Positions 7,097 through 25,679 of a DNA stretch of 32,414 nucleotides are shown piece by piece. Origin of the DNA: an uncultured Actinomycetota bacterium (lineage in GTDB: Bacteria > Actinomycetota > Humimicrobiia > Humimicrobiales > Humimicrobiaceae); assembly GCA_964518375.1 (NCBI GenBank), contig CAZFFH010000006.1:1-32414 (forward strand). Direction: 5' to 3'. Positions within the stretch are counted from its first letter, which is position 1. Each line of letters starts with the position of its first letter. The position numbers and the translations under genes are program-made. A model generated the notes under the pieces. It was not told where the DNA came from. It ran no database searches and worked only from the letters and a program-made list of their open reading frames with translations.

Positions 7097-7127
7097 AAAT
7101 GGCCCAATAGTTATTATTGGGCCATTT
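7097..7127 (-). terminator. Intrinsic terminator after the ABC-transporter operon
   Basis: Perfect 13-bp inverted repeat AAATGGCCCAATA / TATTGGGCCATTT with a 5-nt loop, 52 nt downstream of the binding-protein stop codon. It is followed on the minus strand by the T-rich TATTAAGATTTGTTTT. Confidence 0.8.
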
Positions 7128-7178
7128 ATACACTACCTGTATTGTCATATTAACTTTATGTATGAGGGCATACAAAAA

Positions 7179-8225: not shown

Positions 8226-8270
8226 TTCGTTTTTCCTCCTTAAGGATTTTTGTTTTTTTACATATTCATA

Positions 8271-10222: not shown

Positions 10223-11739
10223 AAATTTTTTACCTCGCTTTGAATATTTCCAACTGCCACCTGCATAAGATCTTCTTCGTTTAGCTCTTCTTTTCTAAAT
10301 TCTTTAATTAATTTACCTTCCCTTATTACAAGTACTCTGTGACACATCCCGATGATTTCAGGTAGCTCAGAGGAAACCATAATTACTCCTATCCCGCTAT
10401 TTGCCAGTTCCTTTACAAGGGTATGGATTTCCTTTTTTGCACCCACATCGATACCTTTTGTGGGTTCATCCAATATTAATATTTTTGGACTGGTTGAAAG
10501 GCACTTAGCAAGAGCAACTTTTTGCTGATTGCCGCCGCTTAAGTTCATTACTAACTGCTCCATTGAGGGAGTTTTAATTGAAAACTCATCAATGTATTTT
10601 TTAGCAAGCCTAGCCTCTTTTTTTGTACTTATTAGCCCAATTTTAGATATCACTTCTTTTAATAACAAGATCGTAACGTTTTCTCTTACTGTAAATCCCT
10701 GAATAATGCTTTCTGTTCTTCTATCCTCAGATACAAAAGCAATCCCTTTATTTATTCCATCCGTAGAATTTTTTATATTGACTCTCTGGCCTTCCACCAA
10801 GATTTCTCCACTATCCAGCTTGTCTAAACCAAATATTGATCTGACTATTTCACTTCTTCCAGCACCAACCAGTCCGGATAGGCCTAAAATTTCACCCCTC
10901 TTTAAATTGAAGCTTATATTTTTGAAAAAACCTCTTCTGGCAATGTTTTTAGCTTCTAGTATTAGTTCTCCTGAAACCTCGTATGTTTTTTCACCGAAAA
11001 TATCTCCTATATCTCTACCTACCATATATTTCACTATATCCATTTCGCTTGTCTCGCTGACTTTTATTGTTGTCACTGTTTTACCGTCACGCAGGATTGT
11101 AACCATTTCTGCAATCCGGAAGATTTCCTTAAGCCTGTGAGAGATATATATAACCGAGGTTCCTTTTTTAACGATTCCTCTGATAATATTGAACAAGTTT
11201 TCCGTATCATCTTCGGCTATTGCAGAGGTAGGTTCGTCCATTATTATTATTTTTGCTTCCCTGGAAAAAGCTTTCGCTATTTCTATGAGTTGTTGCTGAG
11301 CAGTTGAAAGATCGATAACAATAGATCTGGGGTTTAAATTAATAGATAAGTCGTCAAGGATTTTTTGTGAATCATCAAACATTTGTTTCCAGCGAAGCTT
11401 ACCGCCTTTAATAGGCTGTCGTCCTAAAAATATATTTTCGGCAACAGATATTTCCGGTACCAGCGATGTCTCCTGATATATAGTGTTGATACCCAACTGC
11501 ATCGCATGGAAAGGATTTCGTATATTGATTTTTTTGCCTTCGATTTTTATTTCTCCGTGATCATTTGTATAAGAGCCGGATAATATCTTTATTAAGGTGG
11601 ATTTCCCTGCCCCATTCTCACCGACTATTGCAAAAACCTGGCCTTTTTCTAATTTGAAAGAAACCCCATCAAGGGCTTGGACGCCGGGAAAATATTTTGA
11701 TATATCAATCATTTCAAGCAGATATTCATTTGAACTCAA
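10219..11739 (-). CDS. Sugar ABC transporter ATP-binding protein with duplicated ATPase domains (RbsA/MglA type)
   Basis: Walker A motifs GENGAGKST and GLVGAGRSE, signature LSGGNQQK, and Walker B ILILDEP. It starts at a TTG preceded by AGGAG with 6-nt spacing. Confidence 0.9.
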   Translation of the reverse strand: MSSNEYLLEMIDISKYFPGVQALDGVSFKLEKGQVFAIVGENGAGKSTLIKILSGSYTNDHGEIKIEGKKINIRNPFHAMQLGINTIYQETSLVPEISVAENIFLGRQPIKGGKLRWKQMFDDSQKILDDLSINLNPRSIVIDLSTAQQQLIEIAKAFSREAKIIIMDEPTSAIAEDDTENLFNIIRGIVKKGTSVIYISHRLKEIFRIAEMVTILRDGKTVTTIKVSETSEMDIVKYMVGRDIGDIFGEKTYEVSGELILEAKNIARRGFFKNISFNLKRGEILGLSGLVGAGRSEIVRSIFGLDKLDSGEILVEGQRVNIKNSTDGINKGIAFVSEDRRTESIIQGFTVRENVTILLLKEVISKIGLISTKKEARLAKKYIDEFSIKTPSMEQLVMNLSGGNQQKVALAKCLSTSPKILILDEPTKGIDVGAKKEIHTLVKELANSGIGVIMVSSELPEIIGMCHRVLVIREGKLIKEFRKEELNEEDLMQVAVGNIQSEVKNL

Positions 11740-11850
11740 ATAAAACTCCTATTTTTATTTAAATGATTTTAACTTTTAGAATATATTTTTTACAAATAAA
11801 AATATATTTATTAAATATTAATGACAATAAATTAGTGGCTTTTTGTTTTA

Positions 11851-11864
11851 TGTAACCTGTTGCA
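11851..11864. promoter_or_regulatory. Candidate repressor operator, TGTAAC-CT-GTTGCA (imperfect palindrome)
   Basis: The half-sites are TGTAAC and TGCAAC. It begins 1 nt downstream of the -10 box of the ABC promoter and so covers the predicted +1. Confidence 0.45.
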
Positions 11865-11865
11865 T

Positions 11866-11893
11866 ATTATAACTTTTATTATTACAATGTCAA
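11866..11893 (-). promoter_or_regulatory. Consensus sigma-70 promoter TTGACA-N16-TATAAT for the ABC transporter operon
   Basis: The minus strand reads TTGACAttgtaataataaaagtTATAAT, with the -35 at 11888-11893 and the -10 at 11866-11871. It lies about 125 nt upstream of the TTG start at 11739. Confidence 0.65.
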
Positions 11894-11977
11894 CTTAAAA
11901 AAATTACTTAAAATTCGTTTTTTCCCCTTATCCAAAAACGGTACAAGTATAGTGACTTATATCCTGGTGAGGAATAC

Positions 11978-12940
11978 TTAATATCTTATTTCATCAGGTT
12001 TTTCAAAAAACGCAACTTTTCTTATGAACTCTATTGCTTTTTTAAAACCTTCATTTTTTCCGATCAAGGCATCCTGATGTTCAACACTCAATGAACCGTC
12101 ATACCCGCATAACCTGAGAACTGAAACCAGTTTTCTCCAGAATTCTTCACTATGACCATAACCTACAAGCCTCAAGTTCCATGCTCTTGAAGCCAGCTTG
12201 CCATAATCCTTGGAATCAAGAACCCCATCTACGCTGACTACTTTCATATTCAGTTCCGCATCTTGGGCGTGAACATTAAAAATAAGACCATTAAGAATTT
12301 TTACACATTCTATTGGGTCCATGCCCTGCCAGAATAGGTGTGCAGGATCAAAGCAGCAACCCAACCCGTCATAATCCACTTCTTCTCTTAATTTAACCAG
12401 TGTGCTTGTGTTAAAAACTGCATCACCAGGATGCATTTCAAAAGCATACTTTATTTTGTATTTTTTTAATTTTTCTGCCATTTCTCTCCAAAATGGAATA
12501 ATCCTTTCACTCCACTGCCATTTAAGGTAGCCCCTGAATTCAGGCGGGTAAGGCAGCCCGATCCAGCAAGGATATTTTGCGTCTTCAGCGGCCCCGGGGC
12601 AACCTGCAAAACCGTTTAAGACTTTTACCCCAGTTGCTGCAGCAAGCTCTACTACATTTTCCAGGTCTTTTCTGTGAGTATCTGAAATTTTTTTGTTGGG
12701 ATGAAGATAATTGCCCATACAGGAAAATGAACTTATCTGTAAATTGTGCTTTTCCAAAACAGATATAAAATCTCTTAACGCAAACTTATCTTTTAAAAGT
12801 TTTTCCGGGTTACACACATATGTTCCATGCAGTGCACCTGCACCAATTTCCAGGCACTCAAAACCGGCTTCACTTGCACTCCTGCAGATATCAGGCCAGC
12901 TTTCATTAAAAAAACAGTTAGTAAACAAACCTATTTTCAT
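11978..12940 (-). CDS. Sugar (phosphate) isomerase/epimerase, xylose-isomerase-like TIM barrel family
   Basis: 320-aa ORF (GFECLEIG, FEMHPG, CFDPAHL, SVEHQD pattern). It is a distant paralogue of 803-1753. Confidence 0.75.
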   Translation of the reverse strand: MKIGLFTNCFFNESWPDICRSASEAGFECLEIGAGALHGTYVCNPEKLLKDKFALRDFISVLEKHNLQISSFSCMGNYLHPNKKISDTHRKDLENVVELAAATGVKVLNGFAGCPGAAEDAKYPCWIGLPYPPEFRGYLKWQWSERIIPFWREMAEKLKKYKIKYAFEMHPGDAVFNTSTLVKLREEVDYDGLGCCFDPAHLFWQGMDPIECVKILNGLIFNVHAQDAELNMKVVSVDGVLDSKDYGKLASRAWNLRLVGYGHSEEFWRKLVSVLRLCGYDGSLSVEHQDALIGKNEGFKKAIEFIRKVAFFEKPDEIRY

Positions 12941-12993
12941 TTTTTACCTCTGCGCTCCCACGATCTATTTCTTAAATACCAAAAAGAAAACTT

Positions 12994-14175
12994 TTAAGGT
13001 TTTATAATGATTTTTGCTGCTTCTCTCTTCTTTGCAAGCTCCATTGCTTCAAGTCCGTCAATCAGTTTAAACCTGGAGGTTATTATTTTTTCGGGATGCA
13101 GCATACCTGCCGAAATCAACCTTATCACATTTTCAAAAGATCCATTTCCTGAATGTCCCATGGAACAGTGTATCTGGGCTGCCCTTGGAAACATTTTCTT
13201 AAAGTCTGTTGGTACAGGCTTTGGTGGCCAGGCCACAAGAATAATTTTACCATTGACATTTAGAGAATTGAGCATTGCAGGCATTGTCATCTCAGTAGCA
13301 CCTGAACTTTCCATAAAGAAGTCTGCTCCCTGCCCATTAGTCTCATCAAGTATAATGTCCTCTACTCTTCCTCCGCTTTCAGTTATTGAAATAGGATCAA
13401 ATACCTTGTCAGCTCCCATTTCAAGTGCAAGCTTTCTCCTGCCTTCACCAGGTTCAAAAACCATAACTTTTGAAGCACCGGCTACTTTTAACTGTGAAAT
13501 ACCAAAAAGACCAATTGGTCCACAACCAAAAACTACCGCTCTCTGGCCGGGCCTGATTCCCTGTCCTCTTTCAAAAATTGCATTATATGCCACTGAATTC
13601 GGTTCTATCGTTGCACCAACGTCAAATATTAATTCTTCTTCCTTATAAATATTTTTAAATCCATTAATATTCCAGCATAGCTTTGCCGGTACTCTAAGAT
13701 ATTCTGCAAAACCACCATCATATGTTACACCTACTTCCTCCAGTCTCTCACACTGATTTGGAAACCCATTTCTGCAAGCAACACACTCACCGCACCATGT
13801 CATTTCCTCTGTAGTCACATAATCTCCAACTATAAAATCAAACACTTCGGGGCCGATTTTATAAACTATTCCTGAGATTTCATGGCCTAATATAATTTTT
13901 TCCATTCTTGCATGACCCGGATAAAGCATGTAACCTTCTTCATCATACTCTACAAAATGTAAATCAGAACCGCATATCCCACAGGATTTGACACTGATAA
14001 GTATATCTTTCGGACCGATTTCAGGAATATCAACTTCTACTAAATTTAATTCCGGGAATCTCCAGACACTGTTTGAATCCCATATTTTTTTTGTCGTAAG
14101 TTCATATTCTGTCATATGATAATCCTTTTTTGGTTCATATTTGCTTGTAAGTTTCAGAGCCTTCATTTTAGCCAT
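12994..14175 (-). CDS. Zinc-dependent medium-chain alcohol/polyol dehydrogenase
   Basis: Catalytic zinc blocks CGICGSDLH and GHEISGIV, structural zinc block CGECVACRNGFPNQC, and Rossmann motif VFGCGPIG. Its start overlaps the transketolase C-subunit stop by 8 nt (ATGGCTAA). Confidence 0.85.
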   Translation of the reverse strand: MAKMKALKLTSKYEPKKDYHMTEYELTTKKIWDSNSVWRFPELNLVEVDIPEIGPKDILISVKSCGICGSDLHFVEYDEEGYMLYPGHARMEKIILGHEISGIVYKIGPEVFDFIVGDYVTTEEMTWCGECVACRNGFPNQCERLEEVGVTYDGGFAEYLRVPAKLCWNINGFKNIYKEEELIFDVGATIEPNSVAYNAIFERGQGIRPGQRAVVFGCGPIGLFGISQLKVAGASKVMVFEPGEGRRKLALEMGADKVFDPISITESGGRVEDIILDETNGQGADFFMESSGATEMTMPAMLNSLNVNGKIILVAWPPKPVPTDFKKMFPRAAQIHCSMGHSGNGSFENVIRLISAGMLHPEKIITSRFKLIDGLEAMELAKKREAAKIIIKP

Positions 14176-15154
14176 AATATTTTAATTCCTTCCTTCTTTG
14201 TCCTATTTTATTTTTAAAATTAATTAACTCCCTGGCTTTAGCTTGTATGTTTTCAATACTTATACCAAAATATTGAAGTTGAAATTCAAGGTCTGCGGTC
14301 AGTCCGAACTGATTATTTATACCTATCCTGAAAACCGGGACAGGAAATTCTTCTGTTACAATTTCTGATATCAAACCACCTAAACCACCACATGTGGAGT
14401 GATTCTCTACTGTCAGTATGGCGCCTGTTTCAATTGCACATCTAATGATTAATTTCCGGTCTGCAGGTTTTATTGTCGGAATATGCAATACCCTGGCATT
14501 TATATTTTCTTTTTCTAATGCTTCCTGTGCCCGAAATGCTATAAAAGTTGTCAGACCATTGCAAATAATTGTCAGGTCAGCCCCGTCACCCCTAACATAG
14601 GCATTATTAATCTTAAAAATATAGGATGAATCAAAAATATTTTCCGGAAGAGATCTGGGCAAGTGTATATATGTGGGACCGGTATCCTTTGAAACTGTTA
14701 CCAGGACTTCTTTCAATTCCCTTATATCTGAAGGTGCGATTACCTTCATTTTTGGTAAAATCCTCATTATTGCAAAATCCATTAATGAAATATGAGTCCC
14801 GCCATTTTTTCCCTGTGATAAACCGGAATAGCATCCGACAAGTTTTACATTAAGAGCATTATATGCTGCCCCCAGAAAGACCTGATCACATGCCCTCTGT
14901 GAAAGGAAATTTGACATTGTACAAGCAAAAGGTATCCTGCCCATTACTGCCAACCCTGCTGCAATACTGACAAGATTCTGCTCCGCGACTCCGACATTTA
15001 TATGTCTGTCAGGAAACTTTAACATGAACTGTTTTGAACCGGATGCCTTCATAAGATCAGCTTCCACAACAAATATATCCGGATTAGAGGTACCAAGTTC
15101 AAGAAGGGTTTCCCCATACGCTTCTTTTGTTTGTATTAGATTAAAACCGCTCAT
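14168..15154 (-). CDS. Transketolase C-terminal subunit (pyrimidine-binding plus C-terminal domains)
   Basis: 328-aa ORF with GVAEQNLVSIAAGLA and the layout typical of split transketolases. It lies immediately downstream of the N-subunit gene. Confidence 0.85.
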   Translation of the reverse strand: MSGFNLIQTKEAYGETLLELGTSNPDIFVVEADLMKASGSKQFMLKFPDRHINVGVAEQNLVSIAAGLAVMGRIPFACTMSNFLSQRACDQVFLGAAYNALNVKLVGCYSGLSQGKNGGTHISLMDFAIMRILPKMKVIAPSDIRELKEVLVTVSKDTGPTYIHLPRSLPENIFDSSYIFKINNAYVRGDGADLTIICNGLTTFIAFRAQEALEKENINARVLHIPTIKPADRKLIIRCAIETGAILTVENHSTCGGLGGLISEIVTEEFPVPVFRIGINNQFGLTADLEFQLQYFGISIENIQAKARELINFKNKIGQRRKELKYYG

Positions 15155-15211
15155 CTGTTATTAATAAATACTCATGTGCTGTTTCTAGTAATAAACCAAA
15201 CCAGGATTATT

Positions 15212-16048
15212 TCAACAAGTATTAAGCCTTCTCTGAAGTTCCTTTAGCCCAAGCTTATATTGTTCTTCGTCTACCTTACCACTGTGCCACTCCGAACTGT
15301 TTTCCATAAAAGAAACCCCAAATCCTTTTACTGTATTGGCTATTATTATCTTTGGCTGCGAATTTTTTATTTTTGCTGAATCTATTGCTGCAATAATGGA
15401 TCCTATTGAATGTCCGTCTGCCTTAAAAACTTCCCATCCAAATGCTTCCCACTTTTTATCAAGTGGGTCCGTTGGCATTACCTCTTCTACGGGCCCATCG
15501 ATCTGCGAATTATTTCTGTCTACTATTGCAATAATATTATCGAGCTTATATTTTGCTGCAGACATTGCTGCTTCCCAAACCTGACCGCTATCTAATTCAC
15601 CATCGCTCAGCACGACATAGACCATATTTACTTTTTTCTGCTGTTTTAATGAAATAGCAATACCACAAGCCATTGAAAGCCCCTGGCCAAGAGGACCCGT
15701 GGACAGTTCAATTGATTCCAGCATGTTTCTGTCAACATGCTTGGGGAATCTGGACAAAGGTTTATCCAGACCATCATACAGTTCGTTATACGAAAAAAAA
15801 CCTCTTTTAGCCAGAGTCGTGTAAAGGGCAGGACCGCCATGACCTTTTGAAAGCACAAACATATCTCTGGATTCATCCCCCGGTCTTGAAGGGTCAACCT
15901 TCATTTTTAAGAAATAAAGGACTGTAAGTATCTCGACTATTGACAAGCTTCCGCCAAAATGCCCACCACCTGCTTCAGCAATTACTTTGAATGTCTCCAG
16001 CCTTATTTCATCTGCAATTTTTCTTAATCTACCCTCTATGTTTACCAT
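15212..16048 (-). CDS. Transketolase N-terminal subunit (thiamine-diphosphate-binding)
   Basis: 278-aa ORF with GGGHFGGSLS, SKGHGGPALY, TGPLGQGLS and the TPP motif SDGELDSGQVWEA. Confidence 0.85.
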   Translation of the reverse strand: MVNIEGRLRKIADEIRLETFKVIAEAGGGHFGGSLSIVEILTVLYFLKMKVDPSRPGDESRDMFVLSKGHGGPALYTTLAKRGFFSYNELYDGLDKPLSRFPKHVDRNMLESIELSTGPLGQGLSMACGIAISLKQQKKVNMVYVVLSDGELDSGQVWEAAMSAAKYKLDNIIAIVDRNNSQIDGPVEEVMPTDPLDKKWEAFGWEVFKADGHSIGSIIAAIDSAKIKNSQPKIIIANTVKGFGVSFMENSSEWHSGKVDEEQYKLGLKELQRRLNTC

Positions 16049-16058
16049 GACTTCATAT

Positions 16059-16089
16059 TTAACATATTATGTTAAAAATCAACTGTCAA
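16059..16089 (-). promoter_or_regulatory. Candidate promoter TTGACA-N17-TATGTT overlapped by the perfect palindrome TTAACATA-T-TATGTTAA
   Basis: The -35 lies at 16084-16089 and the -10 at 16061-16066. The 8-1-8 palindrome spans 16059-16075. The -10 ends only 12 nt from the ATG at 16048, and no SD is visible. Confidence 0.45.
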
Positions 16090-16141
16090 TACTGTAAAAT
16101 AATCTAAAAATTTTAATATGTACTTATATTTTTACCTGTAA

Positions 16142-17236
16142 TCAGAAACCTATCCTAGGTAACCCGTATACAGACCTCCAGCCATCACTTAACGGCTCCC
16201 TTAAATATGGTTCCATTTCTTTTTCTGTTCTAAGTGTTGTCTTTTCAACAGGAGGTACCTTGCCTGGCGGCAATGCTTCAATAATCTCATCATTCAAAAG
16301 AGTCAGGTATTTTAGTATGGCAGCTATTGGCCTTTTTGCCTTCTCTGCAGAGGCTTTTGTTGCATATCCGACAACACCTTCGGGAGTTGTCATGACTTCA
16401 AGGCCTACATGACCTTCACACTCAGACCATTTTGAAGGTCTGCGATATTCATCAGTTGGAGTATCCATGTGACCACCCGGAATATAAAATTCCGGCTCAG
16501 TATCACAGGCATATTTCATGTCTATCAGTTGTGGAAAAAGAAGTAGACCTATTGATGTTTCAGCCTCATCCGCATGCGTGAAAGGAGTATCAAATTGCCC
16601 TCCTTTTTCCTTAGTTCTGAAAAATTCCCTTACAGATCTATGCCAGTCCAGAACCCTGAAAATTCCAGGTATCTGATATTTTTTAACAAAATCCTGGATA
16701 GTTGATTCAAGCATCCAGAGCTGCCCATGGTTGTTTATTATCACCTGTTTTCTGAAACCATCATTCCATAAGCCCAGCATAACATCATGCAATAAAGCTT
16801 TTGTATTGTCTTCTTGTATTACAACAGTCCCAGGAAGACCTACATGATGGTAAGGGTGAGTACCATATATCAGGGGTGGAAATGCGATATTTATCGGAGT
16901 ACCCCTTTTTGCTGTAAACCTTCTGACACCCTCAAGAATCTGTGTAACAAAAAGTGTGTCCATTGAACTTACAGTATGTTGGCCGTGAAGCTCTGTAGAA
17001 CCGACTGGAATAAAAACAATATCATTTTTCTTTCTTTGTTCAGGAATTTTATATCTTATGGTGGATTGCAGATAAGTTCCTTCCTTAAACCATTCCGGAG
17101 ATGTAGGAATACCATAATCCTGCAATATCTTATCAATATCTTTATCACTTGATTCCCAGATCTCTTTTTTCATTCTGCCAACGGGAGAATCTTCAAAAAA
17201 TAAATCCTCTATATTTGTTTTTAAAAGACCACTCAT
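16142..17236 (-). CDS. Creatininase-family metal-dependent hydrolase, unusually long form
   Basis: 364-aa ORF. It has the creatininase-type metal blocks IPVGSTELHGQH...D, NNHGQ and HADEAETS. A good SD (AAAGGAG) lies upstream. Confidence 0.7.
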   Translation of the reverse strand: MSGLLKTNIEDLFFEDSPVGRMKKEIWESSDKDIDKILQDYGIPTSPEWFKEGTYLQSTIRYKIPEQRKKNDIVFIPVGSTELHGQHTVSSMDTLFVTQILEGVRRFTAKRGTPINIAFPPLIYGTHPYHHVGLPGTVVIQEDNTKALLHDVMLGLWNDGFRKQVIINNHGQLWMLESTIQDFVKKYQIPGIFRVLDWHRSVREFFRTKEKGGQFDTPFTHADEAETSIGLLLFPQLIDMKYACDTEPEFYIPGGHMDTPTDEYRRPSKWSECEGHVGLEVMTTPEGVVGYATKASAEKAKRPIAAILKYLTLLNDEIIEALPPGKVPPVEKTTLRTEKEMEPYLREPLSDGWRSVYGLPRIGF

Positions 17237-17334
17237 TTTAATCTCCTTTCTTTAAATTTTACTGTTCCTGTTTTTAATAATGATGACTTGATTAAATCAA
17301 AACAAATCACCAATAAAAAATATCTACAAGCTCC

Positions 17335-18693
17335 CTAGTCAATTGCCCAGATCTCTTCCTTTGAAGGAGCTTTATCTGTTATTGGATAACCAATCCTTGT
17401 CACATTCATCAGGTGCCTGTAAGTCAGGTTTTCAGAAAGCATATTATTTTCCCATGTCCCACAGCCAAGGGTCGTTGTGGGGGCAAAACCTATTGAAAAA
17501 CCTCCACCGGCAGTAAAATTACAAGTCTGGTTCACGATGATCCTTGATACATAAAGAGCATTCGCAAGCTGTCCAATGTGTTCCCTGTCGTTGGAATGGA
17601 TCACTGCCGAATGTCCCTTGCCATCCATTTCCAAATTTGACTTTGCAATCTCAATTGCTTCAGAAAAATCACCATATTTGTAAATCATTACGACAGGAGA
17701 TAACTTTTCCACCCTTAGTTTTTCAGGTTGTTTCTCCAGATCGCCCCTAATTAGCAGGATCCTTATTTTTTCCGGAACTGCTATCTGGGCATTTACAGTG
17801 ACTTCGTATGCTGATTTTCCAATTAGCTCTTTTCTGAGTATTTCACCATCAAAAAGTGCATCACTTACCCTTATGATATCTTCATCTTTATCTATATATG
17901 CAGCTCCATTTTTAATAAAAGCTGCAACTATATCGTTATACATTTCTTCAGGGACTATAACAGACTGTTCAGATGCACAGGGTATTCCATGATTAAATGA
18001 CCTGCCTGCTATTATCTTTTTTGTAGCATCATCAATGTCTACATCCCTATCAATTATTGCCTGAACATTGCCTGGTCCAACACCATAAGCAGGTTTTCCG
18101 CTGGAATATGCTGCTTTTACCATACCCATTCCACCGGTTGCAACGATAACATGTGCTGCACGCATCAACTCCTGTGTAGATTCCTTTGTTGGTTCTTTTA
18201 TGACCTGAATCAGATTCAGAGGAACATCATATTTTGCAATTGCGTTCTGGACAAGCTCAGAAGTCCTTGCTACTGTTTTTTTTGCCCCGGGATGTGGGGC
18301 ATGTATTACAGAATTTCCACATTTTAAAGCAAACATTGAGTTTGCCATAAAGTTTGTAACGGGAATCGTCACCGGCAATATTACCCCGACTACACCAACT
18401 GGTTTTGCAATCTCTACTATATTAAGATCCTTATCAATATTTATAATACCTGTAGACTTTTTACCTTTAAGGCCGTACCATATGATTTCTGATTTTCGCC
18501 TATCCTGAATCAGATTATCTTCATAATTGCCAAGACCGGTCTCATCTACTGTAATTCTTGCAAGTTCTTCAGCATTATCATAAACAGTTCTTGCTATTTC
18601 CCTTATAACCGTATCTATCTTTTTCTGACCTGTTTTTTCCCATATGCTAAGCGCGACAAGGGCTTTTTTGATCATTCCTGATACTGTTTCCAT
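17335..18693 (-). CDS. CoA-acylating aldehyde dehydrogenase, SucD / SauS / AdhE-N-terminal type
   Basis: 452-aa ORF with the active-site block GIPCASEQS, plus ATGGMGMVKAAYSSGKPAYGVGPGN and TTTLGCGTWENN..SENLTYRHLMNVTRIGY. By recollection it resembles succinate-semialdehyde dehydrogenase (acylating) from end to end. Confidence 0.75.
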   Translation of the reverse strand: METVSGMIKKALVALSIWEKTGQKKIDTVIREIARTVYDNAEELARITVDETGLGNYEDNLIQDRRKSEIIWYGLKGKKSTGIINIDKDLNIVEIAKPVGVVGVILPVTIPVTNFMANSMFALKCGNSVIHAPHPGAKKTVARTSELVQNAIAKYDVPLNLIQVIKEPTKESTQELMRAAHVIVATGGMGMVKAAYSSGKPAYGVGPGNVQAIIDRDVDIDDATKKIIAGRSFNHGIPCASEQSVIVPEEMYNDIVAAFIKNGAAYIDKDEDIIRVSDALFDGEILRKELIGKSAYEVTVNAQIAVPEKIRILLIRGDLEKQPEKLRVEKLSPVVMIYKYGDFSEAIEIAKSNLEMDGKGHSAVIHSNDREHIGQLANALYVSRIIVNQTCNFTAGGGFSIGFAPTTTLGCGTWENNMLSENLTYRHLMNVTRIGYPITDKAPSKEEIWAID

Positions 18694-18731
18694 AATAAAA
18701 CTTTCAAATCGTTTATATTCTTATTTCAATT

Positions 18732-19610
18732 CTAAATAATTTTCATATTTATATTATCAATATATTCTTTTATTTTAAGGGCCAATTTAAGATGCGGAGG
18801 GTCGTACATCACCCCATTAATACTAACAGCACCCTCTTTTTCAATTCTTTGCCTGTTTTCAAGCAGCCGGTTCATTTTCTCAAACTCAACCTTTGACGGT
18901 AAAAATCCGCAATTTATTATTTCTATCTGTGAAGGGTGTATAGCAAGCTTTCCGTTGAAGCCCATGTGAGCTATTTTTGAAACCTGTTTTTCCAGGCCAA
19001 CGCTGTCTTTAAATTCCTTGTAAATAGTATCTATTGCCAGGCAATCATATGCTTTTGAAAATAATAGAATCTGAAATCTTATATAATCTAGCATTGCTTC
19101 TGAGATTTCGGAAAAAACCATGATATCCCTTGAAAAATCCTCCCATCCAATTGTTAATGCCATGATTCTGCTGGTATTTTCTTTTAGTTGTTCGAATTTA
19201 TTAAGTTCGATTATACCCCTGGCGCTTTCGATCATCAGAATTATTTTTATGCTTCCTGCATTTATCCCAGCTTTATTCTCTTCAGATTCAACAAAATTTA
19301 TTACTTCTTTCAATTTTAAAATATTTTCAAATTTCGGGATCACAAAGCCAGCTACTTTTTCACAAATTGTCTCTTTTATATCATTTTTATATAATTGTGA
19401 ATCCAAATCATTGGTCCTTACGAATATTTTTTTACTTATAGTAAGGTTTTTTAGACTTCTTGAAATGTTTTGTCTTGCATGCTCTTTCTGGTTTGCCGGT
19501 ATGCTGTCTTCAAGATCAAGAATAAAACCATCAGGCTTGAGCATATTTATCTTATCAAGCATTTTAATACTTACAGATGGTATGAATAACAGAGACCTTA
19601 ATATTTCCAT
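18732..19610 (-). CDS. CitE / HpcH-HpaI family acyl-CoA lyase (citryl-, malyl- or citramalyl-CoA lyase-like)
   Basis: 292-aa ORF with RSLLFIPS, FILDLEDS, LMIESARG, GWEDFSRD and AIHPSQI, the signature blocks of citrate lyase beta-like enzymes. Confidence 0.75.
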   Translation of the reverse strand: MEILRSLLFIPSVSIKMLDKINMLKPDGFILDLEDSIPANQKEHARQNISRSLKNLTISKKIFVRTNDLDSQLYKNDIKETICEKVAGFVIPKFENILKLKEVINFVESEENKAGINAGSIKIILMIESARGIIELNKFEQLKENTSRIMALTIGWEDFSRDIMVFSEISEAMLDYIRFQILLFSKAYDCLAIDTIYKEFKDSVGLEKQVSKIAHMGFNGKLAIHPSQIEIINCGFLPSKVEFEKMNRLLENRQRIEKEGAVSINGVMYDPPHLKLALKIKEYIDNINMKII

Positions 19611-19653
19611 AGCAGAAAATGAATCAAATTATAAAATCATTTTTACATTCAAT

Positions 19654-19669
19654 AGTATAACGTTAAACT
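19654..19669. promoter_or_regulatory. Candidate LacI-type operator AGTATAAC-GTTAAACT (CG-centred 16-bp palindrome, one mismatch pair)
   Basis: It contains the perfect core TAACGTTA. It starts 7 nt downstream of the -10 box and lies 44 nt upstream of the CitE-like ATG. The LacI gene (19830-20876) is immediately upstream. Confidence 0.5.
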
Positions 19670-19676
19670 ATTTAAT

Positions 19677-19705
19677 ATCATAATAAATATCTTTTCATAT
19701 GTCAA
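19677..19705 (-). promoter_or_regulatory. Sigma-70 promoter TTGACA-N17-TATGAT for the CitE-ALDH-hydrolase unit
   Basis: The minus strand reads TTGACAtatgaaaagatatttatTATGAT, with the -35 at 19700-19705 and the -10 at 19677-19682. Confidence 0.55.
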
Positions 19706-19829: not shown

Positions 19830-20876
19830 TCAACATATGCTTTTTTTGCCAGGTGCAGTTGATTCCCTTATTATTATTTCAGGGGTCAATACCTTATTAA
19901 TTGTAATGTTTATATCTTTGCCCTCAATTTTTTTTATAAGTTCTCCTGTAGCTATTGCAACCATTTCCTTAATTGGCTGTCTCACCGTAGTTAAATTTAC
20001 AAAATCCATTGAACTGAACCCGATGTCATCAAAGCCTGCAATAGAAACGTCCTCAGGAATTTTCAAGTTCTTCTTGTAACAAAAATCTATGACACCGTAG
20101 GCTGCAAAATCGTTTGAACAGAAAATTGCAGAAGGTTTATTTTTGAGTAAAAAAAGTTTTTTTGCTCCTTCTTTTCCACTTTCGGGATTGAACTCTTTTT
20201 CTATGATTATATTTTCTTCCCTTATGTCAATACCGCTATCACTTAATGCAGCTTTATAACCTTTTAACCTGTTTTGAGTAACAAGAGTGTCAAGCGGGCC
20301 TGAAATATATCCTATATTCCTATGTCCCTGATCCATCAGATATCTAATTAATAAATAAGCACCCATGTAGTTATCGACTGTTACAAAATTGATATCCATA
20401 TCAGAATGGTCGGGATACCTTCCAATAAAAATAATAGGTATGTTAATATCCTGAAGGTAACTAAGACACACCCTGCTTAATTTATCTGAGGTACTTAGAA
20501 TACCATCTACTCTGTCTTCCAATAAAGAATCAATATATTTATCGCCGGTTTCCTCACCAATACTCATATCTACAAACAATGTTCTGTAATTAAGATTTTT
20601 TTGGTATATATATTCTTCTATGCCACTTAAGATTTCTGTCTGGTAAGGATTTTTTATATCAAACACTATCAGACCAATTTTGTTTGTTTTTTTAGAAACC
20701 AGGCTTCTTGCTACAAGATTTGGCTTATAGTTAAGCTGTAAAATTGATTGTTCGATTTTCTTTCTGGTATTTTTACTGACATAAGGCTTCTTGCAAAGAT
20801 ATTTTGAAACACAACCTGCCGATATCCCTGCTAACCTTGCAACATCTTTTATGCTTGGAGATTTCTTAACTCTCAT
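19830..20876 (-). CDS. LacI-family transcriptional regulator
   Basis: HTH SIKDVARLAGISAGCVSKYL, followed by a sugar-binding effector domain. 348 aa. Confidence 0.88.
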   Translation of the reverse strand: MRVKKSPSIKDVARLAGISAGCVSKYLCKKPYVSKNTRKKIEQSILQLNYKPNLVARSLVSKKTNKIGLIVFDIKNPYQTEILSGIEEYIYQKNLNYRTLFVDMSIGEETGDKYIDSLLEDRVDGILSTSDKLSRVCLSYLQDINIPIIFIGRYPDHSDMDINFVTVDNYMGAYLLIRYLMDQGHRNIGYISGPLDTLVTQNRLKGYKAALSDSGIDIREENIIIEKEFNPESGKEGAKKLFLLKNKPSAIFCSNDFAAYGVIDFCYKKNLKIPEDVSIAGFDDIGFSSMDFVNLTTVRQPIKEMVAIATGELIKKIEGKDINITINKVLTPEIIIRESTAPGKKSIC

Positions 20877-20987: not shown

Positions 20988-21905
20988 TTATGGTATTTTT
21001 GTTTTTTCTACCAAACTAATCAAATTATCATCTATGGATTGCTCTTCTTCTTCAAGAACGGCATCAAAAAGATACCAGTTTTCTTTATAATCCATGTATT
21101 TGCCTGGTTCTATTTTAGCCAAAGGTCCGAGAGTTTCAACCTCAAATATATCTGCGTCTGTATAAATTTCAGTATTAACACCAAAATCTGTATATTCAGC
21201 TTCAGGTTCGTAATTATAACGTTTAATAAAAATCTGGTCATTTAGAATATATGCGGCCCAGCCAAGGGTATTAAGTATACCAAGTTTCTGCCTGGTGGTA
21301 GACTTGTGATCCTGCCTTAGTTGAATATATTTTCTTCCCCAGATCCATCTGGGATCATCCATCGTTGTATAACCCCACAAGACCAGCGGTCTTACAGGTG
21401 CCAATCTCTCCTCCCATGTTTGAAAAGGCTCGTGCGGAATTATACCCCTGCCCCCAAGATTCATTATACTCAAAATCCAGGGTGCAAGCTTGATGTCCCA
21501 CAGTGTCCTGTTATGAATCCTGTATGATATTTTCACAGAACCATTTTCACTTGCAAATTTTATCATTACTTCTTTCTGTATTCCTGTTGTAGATTCTTTT
21601 TCCTGCAAAAGAGATAGGGTTTTACCGTCCCAGGAATAATTAAGAGGGTTATTGTCTGGAAAATAACACCTGGGATTGGCCTCGGGGCCATGCCAGAATC
21701 TAGTACCACCATACAACCGGTACTCTTCTCCACCTTTTTTCCCAAGTTGGTCTTTAAACTCTCTGAACATGTTCTGTCCACCAATTTTACCAAATCTAAT
21801 TATTCTTGGTCCGATATCAGTAGTAATAATAAGTTCAACTTCCTCATTTGACAATCTTATGCAACCCGGCCAGCCCCCATAACTATATTTTTCCTCAAAT
21901 TTCAT
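20988..21905 (-). CDS. Hypothetical protein, possibly a beta-sandwich mutarotase-like carbohydrate-binding fold
   Basis: 305-aa ORF with a strong SD (AAGGAGG). It is rich in W/Y/G and has no motif I can assign with certainty. The fold guess comes from composition and from blocks such as YGGTRFWHGPE. Confidence 0.3.
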   Translation of the reverse strand: MKFEEKYSYGGWPGCIRLSNEEVELIITTDIGPRIIRFGKIGGQNMFREFKDQLGKKGGEEYRLYGGTRFWHGPEANPRCYFPDNNPLNYSWDGKTLSLLQEKESTTGIQKEVMIKFASENGSVKISYRIHNRTLWDIKLAPWILSIMNLGGRGIIPHEPFQTWEERLAPVRPLVLWGYTTMDDPRWIWGRKYIQLRQDHKSTTRQKLGILNTLGWAAYILNDQIFIKRYNYEPEAEYTDFGVNTEIYTDADIFEVETLGPLAKIEPGKYMDYKENWYLFDAVLEEEEQSIDDNLISLVEKTKIP

Positions 21906-22064
21906 TTTAATCCTCCTTTTGTAATTCCGTAATTAATTTCTGGGAAATAATCCAATTTATAATACAAGAAATCCATCAAATTTTTCCATTTATATGCATT
22001 GGACTTAATATAGCATATATCCTTAAAATAATTATAAAATTTGCCTATTTTTTAACAATACAAA

Positions 22065-24116
22065 TTATATTAATAATTCTTTTTTTATCCTATTAATGAT
22101 CTTATCTACAGATGGTACGCATTCCTTTTCAAGTGCAGAACTCATGGGTACAGGGACATCTTCAGATGTTATTCTAAAAACAGGTGCATCAAGCCAGTCA
22201 AAGACATTTTCGTTTATCAGCATCGCTATCTCGCTGGCAAAATTCAAGGTCTTATAAGCCTCAGAGACTATAACAGCTTTTCCGGTTTTTTTAACAGAAT
22301 TATATATCGTTTCCGTGTCCAATGGTTTTAAGGATCTCATATCTATTACTTCAGTGTCTATTCCCTCTTCTTTTAATATTCTTGAAGCCTCAAGACAATA
22401 GAGAACCATCCTTGAATAAGTTATTATAGTCAGATCTTTACCTTCTCTTTTAATATCTGCTACCCCCAGTGGTATATAGTATTCCTCCTGCGGGACCACA
22501 CCTTTTGTAGAATAAAGCATTTTATGCTCAATAAACATTATGGGATTATTATCTCTTATAGCTGTTTTTAAAAGTCCTTTTGCATCATAAGGTGTAGCAG
22601 GCATAACGACAAATATCCCGGGATAGTGCAAAAACATAGATTCAAGCGATTGAGAGTGGTGAGCAGCTATACTTCTCCCTGTTCCGCCTTCGCTTCTCAT
22701 GACCATTGGGACCGAAGTTTTACCACCAAACATATATCTATTTTTTGCTGCATGGTTTACAAGCTGGTCCATTGCAAGTGTTGAAAAATCAATATACATG
22801 ATCTCACCTATGGGCCTGCTCCCTGTCATAGAAGCACCTATGCACGCCCCCGCAATAGCTGCCTCTGATATGGGCGTGTCTATAATCCTATCCGGAAATT
22901 TTTCATATAATCCTTTAGTAACCCTGTAAGCACCACCATAAACCCCCACGTCTTCACCTATGCAGAAAACATTCTTATCTTTTTCCATTTCCTCGTTAAT
23001 AGCTTCATTTAATGCTTCCCAGTAAAAGATTTCCCTTATAATCTCCTTGTCCTTTACCCTTGAACAAAGTTCTTTTTCTTTTTGAATATCTGAAATATCC
23101 AGGTTAAGATCCGTATAAACATCTGAAAATAATTCCTCTTTTTCAGGATAAGGACTTTTGTTTAAAGCAAAATCCGTGGCAAGATCTATTTTTTTATTTA
23201 CTTCTTTCTGTAGCAATTCAAAGTCATCTTCACTGATGATATCTCCTTTAACAAGGTATGATTTGAACTTGAGTATTGGATCCCTATCTCTCCATAGCTT
23301 CTCTTCCTCTTTTGTCCTGTAAATCTTCGGGTCATTAATAGAGTGGCCAAAATACCTGTAAGTCAATGCTTCAATAAAAACAGGGCCTTTGCCATCTCTG
23401 CAATCCTTGACTGCCTGATTTATATTTTCTATAACTGATAGGATGTCCATTCCTTCAATGCTGGTAGTCTCTATACCAAAAGCTTTTGCCTTTTCAAATG
23501 CTGACAGCCTGGAAGCCTTTTTATATGGAACACTCATGCCATATAAATTGTTTTCGCATATAAACACAATAGGCAAATTATATATAGAGGCCATATTTAT
23601 AGATTCATAAAAAGATCCGGTATTTGAAGCACCATCGCCAAAAAAACAAAGCACCACTTTATCTTCGTTTTTAAGTTTAATTGATAATCCTGCTCCTGTT
23701 GCGACAGGTACATGCCCTCCGACTATTCCTGTAGCACCAAGATTGCCTTTGGCAACATCAGCAATATGCATGGAACCACCCTTGCCTTTGCAATACCCGG
23801 TTACTCGACCGCAAAGCTCTGCCATCATTTTGTTTAAATGGTCCTGTTTTTCCGTAGCAGTCTTTGCTAAACTATCGCCATGCGCGTGACAATGCCCATG
23901 TCCTCTATGAGTAGAGGTAATATAATCTTTTCCTGTTATACAGTACATTGCACCCACTGCTACTGCTTCCTGTCCTGCATAAAGATGTGATGCGCCTTTA
24001 ATTATATCCTTCTGTAAAAGCTCGGATACCCTATTTTCAAAAGCTCTTATTTCCATCATTTGCTGTAATAATACCGTACAGTCATTTTTGCTTATATTTT
24101 TTATTTCTTTTGCCAT
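22065..24116 (-). CDS. Fused E1 alpha-beta component of a 2-oxoacid / acetoin dehydrogenase-type thiamine-diphosphate enzyme
   Basis: 683-aa ORF. The alpha half has the TPP motif GDGASNTG...ICENNLYGMS and YRYFGHSINDP. The beta half (from about residue 365) has GEDVGVYGGAYRVTKGL, IDTPISEAAIAG and RSEGGTGRSIAAHHSQS. SD AAGGAG upstream. Confidence 0.85.
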   Translation of the reverse strand: MAKEIKNISKNDCTVLLQQMMEIRAFENRVSELLQKDIIKGASHLYAGQEAVAVGAMYCITGKDYITSTHRGHGHCHAHGDSLAKTATEKQDHLNKMMAELCGRVTGYCKGKGGSMHIADVAKGNLGATGIVGGHVPVATGAGLSIKLKNEDKVVLCFFGDGASNTGSFYESINMASIYNLPIVFICENNLYGMSVPYKKASRLSAFEKAKAFGIETTSIEGMDILSVIENINQAVKDCRDGKGPVFIEALTYRYFGHSINDPKIYRTKEEEKLWRDRDPILKFKSYLVKGDIISEDDFELLQKEVNKKIDLATDFALNKSPYPEKEELFSDVYTDLNLDISDIQKEKELCSRVKDKEIIREIFYWEALNEAINEEMEKDKNVFCIGEDVGVYGGAYRVTKGLYEKFPDRIIDTPISEAAIAGACIGASMTGSRPIGEIMYIDFSTLAMDQLVNHAAKNRYMFGGKTSVPMVMRSEGGTGRSIAAHHSQSLESMFLHYPGIFVVMPATPYDAKGLLKTAIRDNNPIMFIEHKMLYSTKGVVPQEEYYIPLGVADIKREGKDLTIITYSRMVLYCLEASRILKEEGIDTEVIDMRSLKPLDTETIYNSVKKTGKAVIVSEAYKTLNFASEIAMLINENVFDWLDAPVFRITSEDVPVPMSSALEKECVPSVDKIINRIKKELLI

Positions 24117-24128
24117 ACAATTCTCCTT

Positions 24129-25679
24129 TTAGAAATCTTGAGATGTTTTCTCAAATATCATATTAAAAGTTTTATTAAGAGTATTTTTGAATATGTCTCT
24201 ATAAATATTAAAATAACTGTCATATACGTTCCTGTTACTAATATCTGGTTTAAATATTTTGCTTCTGTCGACTATATCTATATTTGAAGCAACCTTGGCC
24301 ATATCACCGATTACGCCTGAACCAAAACCGGCCAATATGCCACTGCCCCTTATATTGGATTCAAAACTTTCCGACTTTAAATATACCAGACCTGTGATGT
24401 CTGCCTTTATCTGATTCCAAACATCACTTTTTGCACCGCCACCACTGATGGCTATCTCTGAAAAAGAATAATTTGGAAACAATCTTTTTATATTATCAAT
24501 TCCTGCCCTGGCGTCATAACCAATAGACTCGAGAATAGACTTATATAGATGTTCAAGCTTATGGCCCCAATTTAAACCTATCCACGAACCCCTGATTTTA
24601 TTGTCATACGGGCACTGTCTGCCGCCAAAATAAGGGATAAAGATAAGCCCCTCAGAACCGGCAGGTATTTTATCAAGATTTTTTTCTATTGCCTGTAAAA
24701 TGTTACCTTTTTCTATTCCACCTTTTTCAAAACACTCTTTTAGGAAATTATCCCTGAACCATCTAAGGCATATCCCACCACCGTTGATATAATTAAAAGC
24801 ATAAAATGTATCAGCAATCACTGAGGGGATATACATGACTGAACCATTTTTATTATCCGGTACGATTCTGTCAACAGCAATAAATTGTAATGTCGAACTA
24901 CCTGATACTTCAAATAAAGTCCCCGGTTTTACAAGACCTGCTCCCAGAAGCCCTGCGGGTTGATCCCCGGCTCCTGCTATTATCAAAGTTCCTTCATTTA
25001 AACCGCTACCTTCTGCAGCAGCTTTTGTAAACCTTCCGATTATTTTCCATGGCTCTACGACCATAGGAAGTTTCCCTGAATCTATATCAAGGATTTTACA
25101 GAATTCTTTTGACCACTCCAGCTTTTTTATATCTTCAAGACCGAAAAAAGATAGTAAAGTATAATCGATAAAAGCATCGTCGCTTTTTAAACCGGCAAGG
25201 TTACCTGCAACAAAACTATTTAAAGTTACAAACTTCTTTACCTTTTTATATACAGAAGGGTATTCTTTTTTCCACCATAGTATTTTCGGGAGGTTTCTTG
25301 GTGAACCACAGGTTTTTGTCCTTAAAAATTTCTTATAATTATCATGCAAATAAGCATTATATTTCTCTGATCTGACATCAAGGCCCATGTCGTAACCGGT
25401 TATAGATCCATAATAAGCATCGATGCCTATTATTCCACCCATTTGCCCATCTATAGATATTGCTGTAACAAGGACCGGATTTATTTCTGTTTTTTCAAGG
25501 ATTTCTTTTATTATGCCAATAGTGCCCGCAACAAAATCCTGGGGATCCTGTTCCATTAAACCGGGCTTTCTGGAAATTAGCTTTGTTTCCCAGTAACTGC
25601 TGCCAATAATTCTTCCTGCTTCATCTATGATACCGGCTTTTATTCCATTGGTACCCAGATCTACACCAATAAAATACAT
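24129..25679 (-). CDS. FGGY-family carbohydrate kinase (xylulokinase/glycerol-kinase-like)
   Basis: 516-aa ORF with N-terminal MYFIGVDLGTNGIKAG and the C-terminal actin-fold block ISGGGAKSDVWNQIKADITG. Confidence 0.85.
   Translation of the reverse strand: MYFIGVDLGTNGIKAGIIDEAGRIIGSSYWETKLISRKPGLMEQDPQDFVAGTIGIIKEILEKTEINPVLVTAISIDGQMGGIIGIDAYYGSITGYDMGLDVRSEKYNAYLHDNYKKFLRTKTCGSPRNLPKILWWKKEYPSVYKKVKKFVTLNSFVAGNLAGLKSDDAFIDYTLLSFFGLEDIKKLEWSKEFCKILDIDSGKLPMVVEPWKIIGRFTKAAAEGSGLNEGTLIIAGAGDQPAGLLGAGLVKPGTLFEVSGSSTLQFIAVDRIVPDNKNGSVMYIPSVIADTFYAFNYINGGGICLRWFRDNFLKECFEKGGIEKGNILQAIEKNLDKIPAGSEGLIFIPYFGGRQCPYDNKIRGSWIGLNWGHKLEHLYKSILESIGYDARAGIDNIKRLFPNYSFSEIAISGGGAKSDVWNQIKADITGLVYLKSESFESNIRGSGILAGFGSGVIGDMAKVASNIDIVDRSKIFKPDISNRNVYDSYFNIYRDIFKNTLNKTFNMIFEKTSQDF

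Follow-up and report, generated by a model that had tools for sequence, protein, structure and literature searches.

Within a 32,414-nt stretch of DNA from an uncultured Actinomycetota bacterium (contig CAZFFH010000006.1 of assembly GCA_964518375.1; hereafter the window), a LacI-family repressor gene precedes a run of minus-strand genes that opens with a CitE-like acyl-coenzyme A (CoA) lyase, a SucD-like aldehyde dehydrogenase (ALDH) and a creatininase-fold hydrolase. The original prediction took these three genes as one LacI-gated unit in a sugar locus. Our analysis points to a longer operon, which could well be a transketolase-dependent variant of the Thermotoga-type inositol pathway, the pathway of IolM and IolN; we put this forward tentatively. 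More doubtful, although possible, is the further proposal that the CitE-like subfamily is a tartryl-CoA lyase and that, with its dedicated ALDH, it forms a portable energy-conserving module completing a transketolase-dependent inositol fermentation.

Gene content and conservation of the block

The three minus-strand open reading frames (ORFs) lie exactly where the original prediction had placed them (table 1), and their translations contain every peptide block named for them: LDLEDS, MIESARG, GWEDFSRD and AIHPSQI in the lyase, GIPCASEQS in the ALDH, and PVGSTELHGQH and HADEAETS in the hydrolase. Judged by profile scores, the hydrolase appears to be an ordinary IolN, that is, a ring-opening C-C hydrolase of a cyclic diketone. 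It reached 320.6 bits against the IolN equivalog NF041098 (cut-off 245), with residues 52-359 covering profile positions 5-305 of 307. Against creatininase proper (TIGR04448) it reached 61.2 bits at a cut-off of 235, and only the Pfam fold family PF02633 was passed. At E <= 1e-30 there were 2216 IolN homologues. The best 120 of them were all 364-379 aa long and 66-100% identical over their full length, and several of the homologues are already named 3-dehydro-scyllo-inosose hydrolase by NCBI. Conservation of the first 60 or so residues extends across Actinomycetota, Myxococcota and Bacillota. The description of the protein as an oversized creatininase with an N-terminal extension was therefore abandoned, since this length is normal for a large clade and the N-terminus is conserved. 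As for its role, the idea that it opens a cyclic carbohydrate derivative stands, while that of an amide-linked substrate falls, because IolN is a C-C hydrolase and not an amidase.

Three genes downstream of IolN, in the same strand run, lies a gene that passes the equivalog cut-off for IolM, scyllo-inosose 3-dehydrogenase (table 1). The genomic pairing of IolN with IolM is conserved in the related loci L007, L088, L094, L096, L111 and L117. Because IolN and IolM both match at equivalog level, the supposed sugar locus can be specified as a Thermotoga-type cyclitol locus. Between the two genes sit the halves of a split transketolase, TktN and TktC. The three-gene reading had overlooked the transketolase and IolM in the same conserved block, and these would supply the step from C6 to C4.

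Related loci were sampled through exact-protein look-ups and a metagenome scan with a DNA pattern of the lyase signature, and were annotated by BLASTP against the window proteins. The scan returned 24 loci, with 7 chance matches without a lyase. A profile search of genome contigs with the lyase alignment was not used for synteny: among the matches listed, nearly all were paralogues at 30-37% identity from Chloroflexota and Proteobacteria, and one was a true orthologue fragment (L071). The order CitE-like lyase, ALDH, IolN, TktN, TktC, IolM recurred in L007, L088, L091, L096, L106, L108 and L111, and again in L094 with a TIM-barrel gene inserted, which makes at least eight independent metagenomic loci. 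In these loci the lyases are 45-63% identical to that of the window, the ALDHs 63-81% and the IolN proteins 76-87%. In L007, L088, L096 and L111 the block ends with an IolM orthologue at 72-81% identity. Orthologues of the window's TIM-barrel protein (52-55% identity) lie inside or beside the block in L094 and L096. Of the 20 non-redundant loci with downstream sequence, 16 have the ALDH immediately behind the lyase, at gaps of -16 to +65 nt. The trio is thus kept as neighbours in relatives. The homologues are almost all metagenomic and include metagenome-assembled genomes (MAGs) labelled Actinomycetota and Candidatus Humimicrobiaceae.

Transketolase is a recurrent partner of IolN in several phyla. 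TktN directly follows IolN in L007, L088, L091, L094, L096, L111 and L115, and in L115 two transketolase pairs come after IolN. In L116, from a Bacillota MAG, the order is cupin, TktN, TktC, Zn-dependent alcohol dehydrogenase (Zn-ADH), TIM barrel and IolN, which places the transketolase pair upstream of IolN. Positions 11355-17381 of this locus, after the IolN-transketolase cluster, encode a ferredoxin, a two-subunit CoA-transferase, an Ldh_2 protein and an aldehyde:ferredoxin oxidoreductase. Alone among such loci, L116 has no lyase-ALDH pair close by; the oxidoreductase and the CoA-transferase replace the ALDH and the lyase there, so the transketolase product is again expected to be an aldehyde, and this gene set may be a third way to handle the same product. 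The Myxococcota locus L117 has the classical layout (UxaE, IolM, IolN, an IolO-like TIM barrel and a GFO dehydrogenase), and no transketolase, lyase or ALDH was found in it. This suggests that the transketolase set replaces the IolO/UxaE route.

The window has a G+C content of about 37% and carries nearly all of its genes on the minus strand. The LacI gene lies 219 nt upstream of the lyase gene, and LacI orthologues with 51-57% identity precede the CitE-like gene in L007, L088 and L094. All the control elements that had been described in between are present: a predicted TTGACA-17-TATGAT promoter 67 nt upstream of the lyase start codon and a CG-centred palindrome, ATAGTTTAACGTTATACTAT, over the predicted +1 region. 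The palindrome begins 5 nt past the -10 hexamer, its arms pair at 9 of 10 positions, and it occurs once in the window where 0.02 copies are expected by chance. Promoter-like matches as such are barely enriched in this AT-rich region (49 against 38.6 +/- 7 expected in a shuffle). L007, L088, L096 and L108 keep the operator core TAGTTTAACGTTA[TC]ACTA at 26-54 nt before the CitE-like start, and L091 and L092 have degenerate copies. It was not found in the upstream regions compared from lyase loci without IolN. The proposed LacI gating of these genes thus has good comparative support from operator conservation.

Gaps between the genes measure 38 nt (lyase/ALDH), 98 nt (ALDH/IolN), 93 nt (IolN/TktN), 57 nt (TktN/TktC) and 53 nt (IolM/TIM-barrel gene), and TktC and IolM overlap by 8 nt. 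The window scan found no terminator-like site in any gap from the lyase gene to the TIM-barrel gene, and the next strong promoter downstream, with 12/12 consensus matches, lies at 11893..11866 before an ATP-binding cassette (ABC) transporter. On these grounds the transcription unit most likely runs from 19610 to about 11978. The genes would probably form a LacI-repressed operon of at least six genes, or seven counting the TIM-barrel gene, with the lyase, ALDH and hydrolase as its front. A closed unit of three genes is not what we see, as the run goes on to TktN, TktC, IolM and the TIM-barrel gene across gaps without terminators. An Rfam search of the window gave no matches.

A distinct CitE-like lyase and its SucD-like partner

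The lyase scored above the gathering score of two Pfam families, HpcH_HpaI (PF03328, 127.6 bits) and C-C_Bond_Lyase (PF15617, 66 bits), and under all NCBIfam equivalog cut-offs. It reached 149 bits against citE (TIGR01588, cut-off 443.4), 113.5 against RipC (cut-off 375) and 65.7 against L-malyl-CoA/beta-methylmalyl-CoA lyase (cut-off 500). The profile search thus assigns it to the HpcH/C-C lyase superfamily and to no characterised equivalog. Its closest solved relatives by sequence are human CLYBL and malyl-CoA/beta-methylmalyl-CoA lyases, with which it shares 22-28% identity. The AlphaFold2 (AF2) model, with a predicted local distance difference test score (pLDDT) of 93.7, is a TIM barrel with a C-terminal lid, the fold of the superfamily, and Foldseek aligned it to malyl-CoA lyase and CLYBL structures (5ugr, 5vxc and 4l9y) with TM 0.80-0.88 at 24-28% identity. 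Residues R65, E128, D158 and D270, unchanged across 29 subfamily members, line up with R/E/D/D of CLYBL; we take the first three to be the Mg2+ and substrate ligands, with Glu and Asp binding Mg2+, and the last to be the C-terminal catalytic Asp. Sequence and model together therefore suggest a malyl-CoA-lyase/CLYBL-type enzyme, and the chemistry expected from Mcl1 and CLYBL/citramalyl-CoA lyase is retro-aldol cleavage of a beta-hydroxy-beta-carboxy acyl-CoA to a 2-oxoacid and an acyl-CoA.

The subfamily is nevertheless set apart from these relatives. It is sharply bounded, with about 75 database clusters at 40-63% identity and then nothing above 36%. Where canonical CitE-like proteins have GxM[IV]DxP...RA, it carries the C-terminal signature M[YFL]DxxHL[KR]W[AS], so that the window lyase has MYDxxHLKWA in place of the GxMIDxPxxxRA of Mcl1 and CLYBL. 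Whereas those enzymes serve the ethylmalonyl-CoA, 3-hydroxypropionate and itaconate pathways, the window lyase has an acylating ALDH as its partner, in sugar loci.

Sequence likewise indicates that the ALDH is a SucD/SauS-type CoA-acylating enzyme, in agreement with what had been read from its active site. The best PDB match was Clostridium kluyveri SucD (CkSucD, 8cei; E 8e-124, 45% identity over the full length), while the best NCBIfam matches stayed under their cut-offs (SauS 393 bits against 600, EutH_ACDH 349 against 620). The catalytic residues are kept, Cys239 and His361-Ser362 aligning with C242 and H364-T365 of CkSucD. In CkSucD, Lys70 and Ser243 are ligands of the distal carboxylate of the acyl group (PMC10249356). 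The lysine is conserved as Lys67, which fits a C4 dicarboxylate semialdehyde, and Ser243 is replaced by Ala240 in 13 of 13 CitE-linked ALDH orthologues. The window enzyme further differs from SucD in having Asn for Thr395 and a QD[RK]RK segment for KxxLK, and all CitE-linked orthologues share the class motif QD[RK]RK / PCASE / NF[NT]. Its setting is sugar-acid catabolism, whereas clostridial SucD leads from succinate to 4-hydroxybutyrate. We propose that it acts as a 2,3-dihydroxy-4-oxobutanoate (tartrate semialdehyde) dehydrogenase and that the lyase cleaves tartryl-CoA (beta-hydroxymalyl-CoA) to glyoxylate and glycolyl-CoA.

Annotation by JGI gives homologues of these proteins the names citrate lyase beta subunit, succinate-semialdehyde dehydrogenase and creatininase, which would make them ordinary enzymes; we give this reading almost no credence. 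All three names were rejected on curated NCBIfam cut-offs: the lyase and the hydrolase fall well short of the citE and creatininase models, the ALDH is far under the succinate-semialdehyde dehydrogenase and SauS cut-offs, and the hydrolase passes as IolN. The partners of a citrate lyase are likewise missing, as had been predicted. No citD or citF was found among the window ORFs of at least 100 aa scanned (shorter ORFs were not systematically checked, and CitD is about 97 aa long), nor in the 20 related loci. Two other substrates for the pair, malonate semialdehyde with malonyl-CoA and glyceraldehyde with glyceroyl-CoA, were dropped: a lyase of the CitE type must release a 2-oxoacid as leaving group, and the carboxylate-binding lysine of SucD is retained in the ALDH.

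As a side observation, a sister ALDH class (53% identity, LPCACE motif) occurs in L118-L120 at 5800-17356, paired with a canonical-type CitE-like lyase that is 29% identical to the window lyase. An E2 lipoyl acyltransferase belongs to the same group, which adjoins a true iolD (830 bits, cut-off 715). The pairing of SucD-like with CitE-like proteins therefore appears older and broader than the subfamily described here.

A proposed transketolase-dependent inositol route and its rivals

In the proposed route, IolM would oxidise scyllo-inosose to 3-dehydro-scyllo-inosose, and IolN would hydrolyse a C-C bond of the ring to give 5-dehydro-L-gluconate. Read from C6, this compound is CH2OH-CO-(CHOH)3-COOH, a 2-ketose that ends in a carboxylate and is of the kind cleaved by transketolases. 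From it the split transketolase would move the CH2OH-CO- unit to an acceptor, directly or after epimerisation, and leave the C4 aldehyde-acid tartrate semialdehyde, OHC-CHOH-CHOH-COOH. With CoA and NAD(P)+, the ALDH would probably convert this to tartryl-CoA, which the lyase would cut between C2 and C3, the thioester bond being retained for later ATP formation. The model for this cut is beta-methylmalyl-CoA lyase, whose substrate has a methyl group where tartryl-CoA has the hydroxyl and is cleaved to glyoxylate and propionyl-CoA. Each gene of the conserved block would be used once and in a chemically sensible order. In favour of the route, L007 and L094 contain 2-hydroxyacid dehydrogenase genes, which are candidates for glyoxylate reductases. 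The TIM-barrel protein may carry out the epimerisation; it has no equivalog match and a weak IolE match, PDB sequence searches gave weak matches of which none was usable, and an epimerase or isomerase of a keto-uronate or C4 intermediate is possible.

The original prediction had instead led from a (hydroxy)acid semialdehyde through a malyl-CoA-like thioester to acetyl-CoA and a small oxo-acid. Spelled out for a deoxygenated C4 unit, it runs from malate semialdehyde through (S)-malyl-CoA to acetyl-CoA and glyoxylate, and it needs a dehydration, for example by the TIM-barrel protein. The closest solved relatives of the lyase are indeed malyl-CoA lyases and CLYBL, the TIM-barrel protein (AP_endo_B) shares its fold family with the IolE dehydratase, and acetyl-CoA would be of more use as a product than glycolyl-CoA. 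We nevertheless consider this version unlikely. The IolM/IolN route keeps all hydroxyls, no gene product in the block passes the cut-off of any dehydratase family, and the TIM-barrel gene is missing from the L007 and L111 blocks. The His/Trp signature beside the catalytic Asp of the lyase and the Ser243 to Ala exchange in the ALDH suggest that the substrate is none of those already known. As no dehydratase was identified in the block, the C4 unit would keep both hydroxyls, and this favours tartryl-CoA, with glycolyl-CoA and glyoxylate as products, over the malyl-CoA-like thioester and acetyl-CoA.

Parts of the tartryl-CoA route have precedents. For Thermotoga maritima, inositol breakdown is outlined as IolG, IolM, IolN and IolO followed by UxaE and the hexuronate route (PMC5931981 and PMC3750489, citing Rodionova et al. 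2013). The window agrees with this outline in its equivalog-level matches to IolM and IolN, in the use of the same C-C hydrolase to open the ring to 5-keto-L-gluconate, and in having a sugar ABC transporter and a repressor alongside. It departs from it in lacking IolG, a clear IolO and UxaE within the window, where a split transketolase, an acylating ALDH and a CitE-like lyase occur instead, and in a regulator of LacI type rather than the outlined ROK type.

In the sulfo-TK variant of sulfoquinovose breakdown, the split transketolase SqwGH acts on an anionic ketose and is followed by SqwD, a CoA-acylating sulfoacetaldehyde dehydrogenase (PMC12890257). Both systems belong to anaerobes, and the route proposed here would share with the sulfo-TK variant a split transketolase on an anionic, non-phosphorylated ketose, a SauS/SucD-type acylating dehydrogenase as the next enzyme, and the energy of a thioester. 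They differ in the anion (a carboxylate here, a sulfonate there), in the following enzyme (a C-C lyase against an ADP-forming ligase) and in the feeder (cyclitol ring opening against sulfoquinovose isomerisation).

For the transketolase step itself, grapevine has been proposed to cleave 5-keto-D-gluconate in this way and so to form tartaric semialdehyde (PMC12016104, PMC7970118), and the E. coli TktA variant R358I/H461S/R520Q was shown to perform this cleavage (PMC12016104). The window route would likewise cleave a 5-ketohexonate between C4 and C5 to a C4 aldehyde-acid. It would be catabolic, CoA-dependent and on the L-gluconate series, unlike the biosynthetic or engineered route, which ends in free tartrate through a non-acylating dehydrogenase. 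In a low-identity alignment with E. coli TktA, two of the three phosphate-site residues are lost in the IolN-linked transketolase. TktC has K, G, A or S at R358, Y or F at H461 and Asn at D469, and keeps H473 and R520 (six IolN-linked orthologues), so that the natural window enzyme, like the engineered TktA, lacks Arg358 and His461. The second transketolase pairs of these loci still have R358.

Several points weigh against the route. The transketolase donor and the substrates of the ALDH and the lyase are all deduced, and the residue mapping of the transketolase, at such low identity, is a hint only. By our own stereochemical working, C3 and C4 of 5-dehydro-L-gluconate have a D-sorbose-like configuration, which ordinary transketolases do not accept. 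By tblastn the window holds no homologue of UxaE or of GFO (IolG-type) dehydrogenases, the IolO model reaches 80 bits (cut-off 300) on a distant gene at 803-1759 and nothing on the TIM-barrel gene at 11978-12940, and nothing in the window stands out as an enzyme for glycolyl-CoA. Four of the 20 lyase loci have no acylating ALDH next door: L095 and L099 carry a classical ALDH and an aldo-keto reductase, L090 carries a cupin gene, and in L097 the 327 bp available downstream of the lyase contain no ALDH match. The lyase-ALDH pair, with the same pocket motifs, also occurs without IolN, beside an FbP-type aldolase and an FGGY kinase in L005 and L089, beside E1 alpha/beta enzymes dependent on thiamine pyrophosphate (TPP) in L006 and L110, and beside an HpcH aldolase and KDG-type genes on the P0003 contig. 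It is not obvious that all those other feeder routes could yield the same C4 dihydroxy semialdehyde. Separately, a Zn-ADH gene at 25831-26883 is no more than a candidate for an IolG-type inositol dehydrogenase.

The occurrences without IolN mark the lyase-ALDH pair as a portable two-gene module with IolN as one feeder, and the hydrolase can no longer count as an obligate member of the trio. They are also what would be expected if the pair were a general module for some other aldehyde, uncoupled from IolN and transketolase and merely co-regulated with them in the window. This reading also draws on MAG GCA_040961035.1, whose IolN-transketolase genes (L115) are on another contig than its lyase-ALDH genes (L005), and on the sister ALDH class with its canonical CitE-like lyase and E2 component beside iolD. 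We regard it as rather unlikely, since eight independent loci hold the pair together with IolN, transketolase and IolM in the same order and with a conserved operator. The pair would also give the transketolase product of the block its only consumer and turn the block into a complete linear route.

The pair might also run in the opposite direction. Two rounds of transketolase cleavage, like those of the sulfo-TK pathway, would then yield glyoxylate. The lyase would condense it with acetyl-CoA, and the ALDH would reduce the resulting malyl-CoA to malate semialdehyde, which would serve assimilation or the disposal of electrons. SucD-type enzymes are physiologically reductases (PMC10249356), the surroundings of the L007, L088, L111 and L115 blocks contain second transketolase pairs and candidate isomerases of cupin or RpiB type, and HpcH and KDPG/KHG-type aldolases, which make or use glyoxylate, adjoin the pair in other loci. 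Nevertheless, the window has a single transketolase pair, no follow-up enzyme is evident for a C4 semialdehyde made from acetyl-CoA, and the SauS/SqwD relatives act oxidatively (PMC12890257). Direct reduction of glyoxylate would moreover be a cheaper electron sink, and the 2-hydroxyacid dehydrogenase genes in L007 and L094 could be glyoxylate reductases. We judge the condensing direction very unlikely, and retain cleavage of tartryl-CoA as the preferred reading.

The full texts searched, with most subscription journals outside their coverage, contained no description of a transketolase-dependent IolM/IolN route, of a tartryl-CoA lyase or of natural glycolyl-CoA formed from inositol. The upper pathway is already known; that the lower branch and its two enzyme subfamilies are undescribed is an argument from absence of evidence only. 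So far the proposed transketolase-dependent route appears mainly in MAGs such as those of uncultured Actinomycetota.

Inositols are abundant in plant matter and sediments. To our knowledge, bacteria are known to break down inositol either by the IolE/IolD route or by the Thermotoga IolM/IolN route feeding hexuronate catabolism, and glycolyl-CoA has been known mainly from engineered pathways. If the proposal is right, the block would represent a third lower branch of inositol breakdown and a new way of fermentation for uncultured sediment organisms, among them Actinomycetota and Bacillota. Two subfamilies would gain a function, the widespread but unnamed CitE-like one and the SucD-like one, and glycolyl-CoA would have a source in nature. 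The enzymes themselves would form or condense glycolyl-CoA and glyoxylate, and natural catalysts of this kind are in demand for synthetic C2 assimilation and bio-based tartrate chemistry.

Genes around the probable operon

Table 1. Positions of the operon, its predicted control elements and neighbouring genes (window coordinates unless a locus is named).
Feature	Coordinates	Strand	Basis or remark
LacI-family repressor gene (LacI_2)	19830..20876	-	Pfam LacI helix-turn-helix + Peripla_BP_1/3
Sigma-70-like promoter TTGACA-17-TATGAT	19677..19705	-	11/12 consensus matches; predicted
CG-centred 20-bp palindromic putative operator ATAGTTTAACGTTATACTAT	19652..19671	.	over predicted +1 region
CitE-like acyl-CoA lyase, distinct subfamily, 292 aa	18732..19610	-	Pfam HpcH_HpaI + C-C_Bond_Lyase
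SucD/SauS-type CoA-acylating semialdehyde dehydrogenase, 452 aa	17335..18693	-	Pfam Aldedh
IolN, 3-dehydro-scyllo-inosose hydrolase (C-C hydrolase, creatininase fold), 364 aa	16142..17236	-	NCBIfam NF041098
Split transketolase, N-terminal (TPP-binding) subunit TktN	15212..16048	-	Pfam Transketolase_N
Split transketolase, C-terminal (Pyr + C) subunit TktC	14168..15154	-	Pfam Transket_pyr + Transketolase_C
IolM, scyllo-inosose 3-dehydrogenase	12994..14175	-	NCBIfam NF041097, 475.7 bits vs cut-off 450
Xylose-isomerase-like TIM-barrel protein (AP_endo_B)	11978..12940	-	Pfam AP_endonuc_2
Ribose/inositol-type ABC transporter (binding protein, two permeases, ATPase)	7179..11739	-	translations, promoter scan
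Upstream recurring genes: mutarotase, fused E1 alpha-beta, FGGY (xylulokinase-like) kinase	20988..25679	-	family matches
URO-D/MtaA-like genes	window 3069-4352; L005 15355-17964; L089 5071-6249; L115 15405-17754; L007 1470-2588; L110 between TktC and CitE

The predicted promoter before the ABC transporter ATPase gene is a perfect sigma-70 consensus, TTGACA-16-TATAAT (11866-11893, minus strand), and no copy of the LacI operator was found near it. A similar transporter lies near the block in L007, and we infer an association of the transporter with the operon.

Upstream of the LacI gene lie three genes whose relatives recur in the sampled loci. The DUF4380/TTE1925-like mutarotase at 20988-21905 reached 302 bits against a cut-off of 550, and a PDB sequence search found no solved relative; a mutarotase-like gene stands directly upstream of the CitE-like gene in L106, L071 and L105. 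The fused E1 alpha-beta TPP enzyme at 22065-24116 is of the pyruvate dehydrogenase/acetoin dehydrogenase type, with no E2 or E3 in the window, and separate E1a and E1b genes flank the lyase-ALDH pair in L006, L110 and L096. The fused enzyme may be a second way to cleave an alpha-hydroxyketone. The FGGY kinase has counterparts directly upstream of the lyase-ALDH pair in L005 and L089.

URO-D/MtaA-like genes recur beside lyase-ALDH or IolN-transketolase loci (table 1), and the one in L005 sits with an MttB-family gene. Demethylation of O-methyl-inositols, for example pinitol, is one possible role of their products, and a different role is also conceivable. The window copy falls within a second LacI-headed sugar unit at 803-6805. 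Besides the URO-D-like protein, this unit encodes a FucI/SftI-like isomerase (105 bits, cut-off 700), a cupin/PMI-like protein and the IolO/psicose-epimerase-like TIM barrel whose IolO score is given above.

At the far end of the window, 31128-32414 holds short broken ORFs only, and the GC and AT skews flip there. The ORF at 31523-31765 on the plus strand looks like an N-terminal fragment of a transposase, and the region may be a decayed insertion element.

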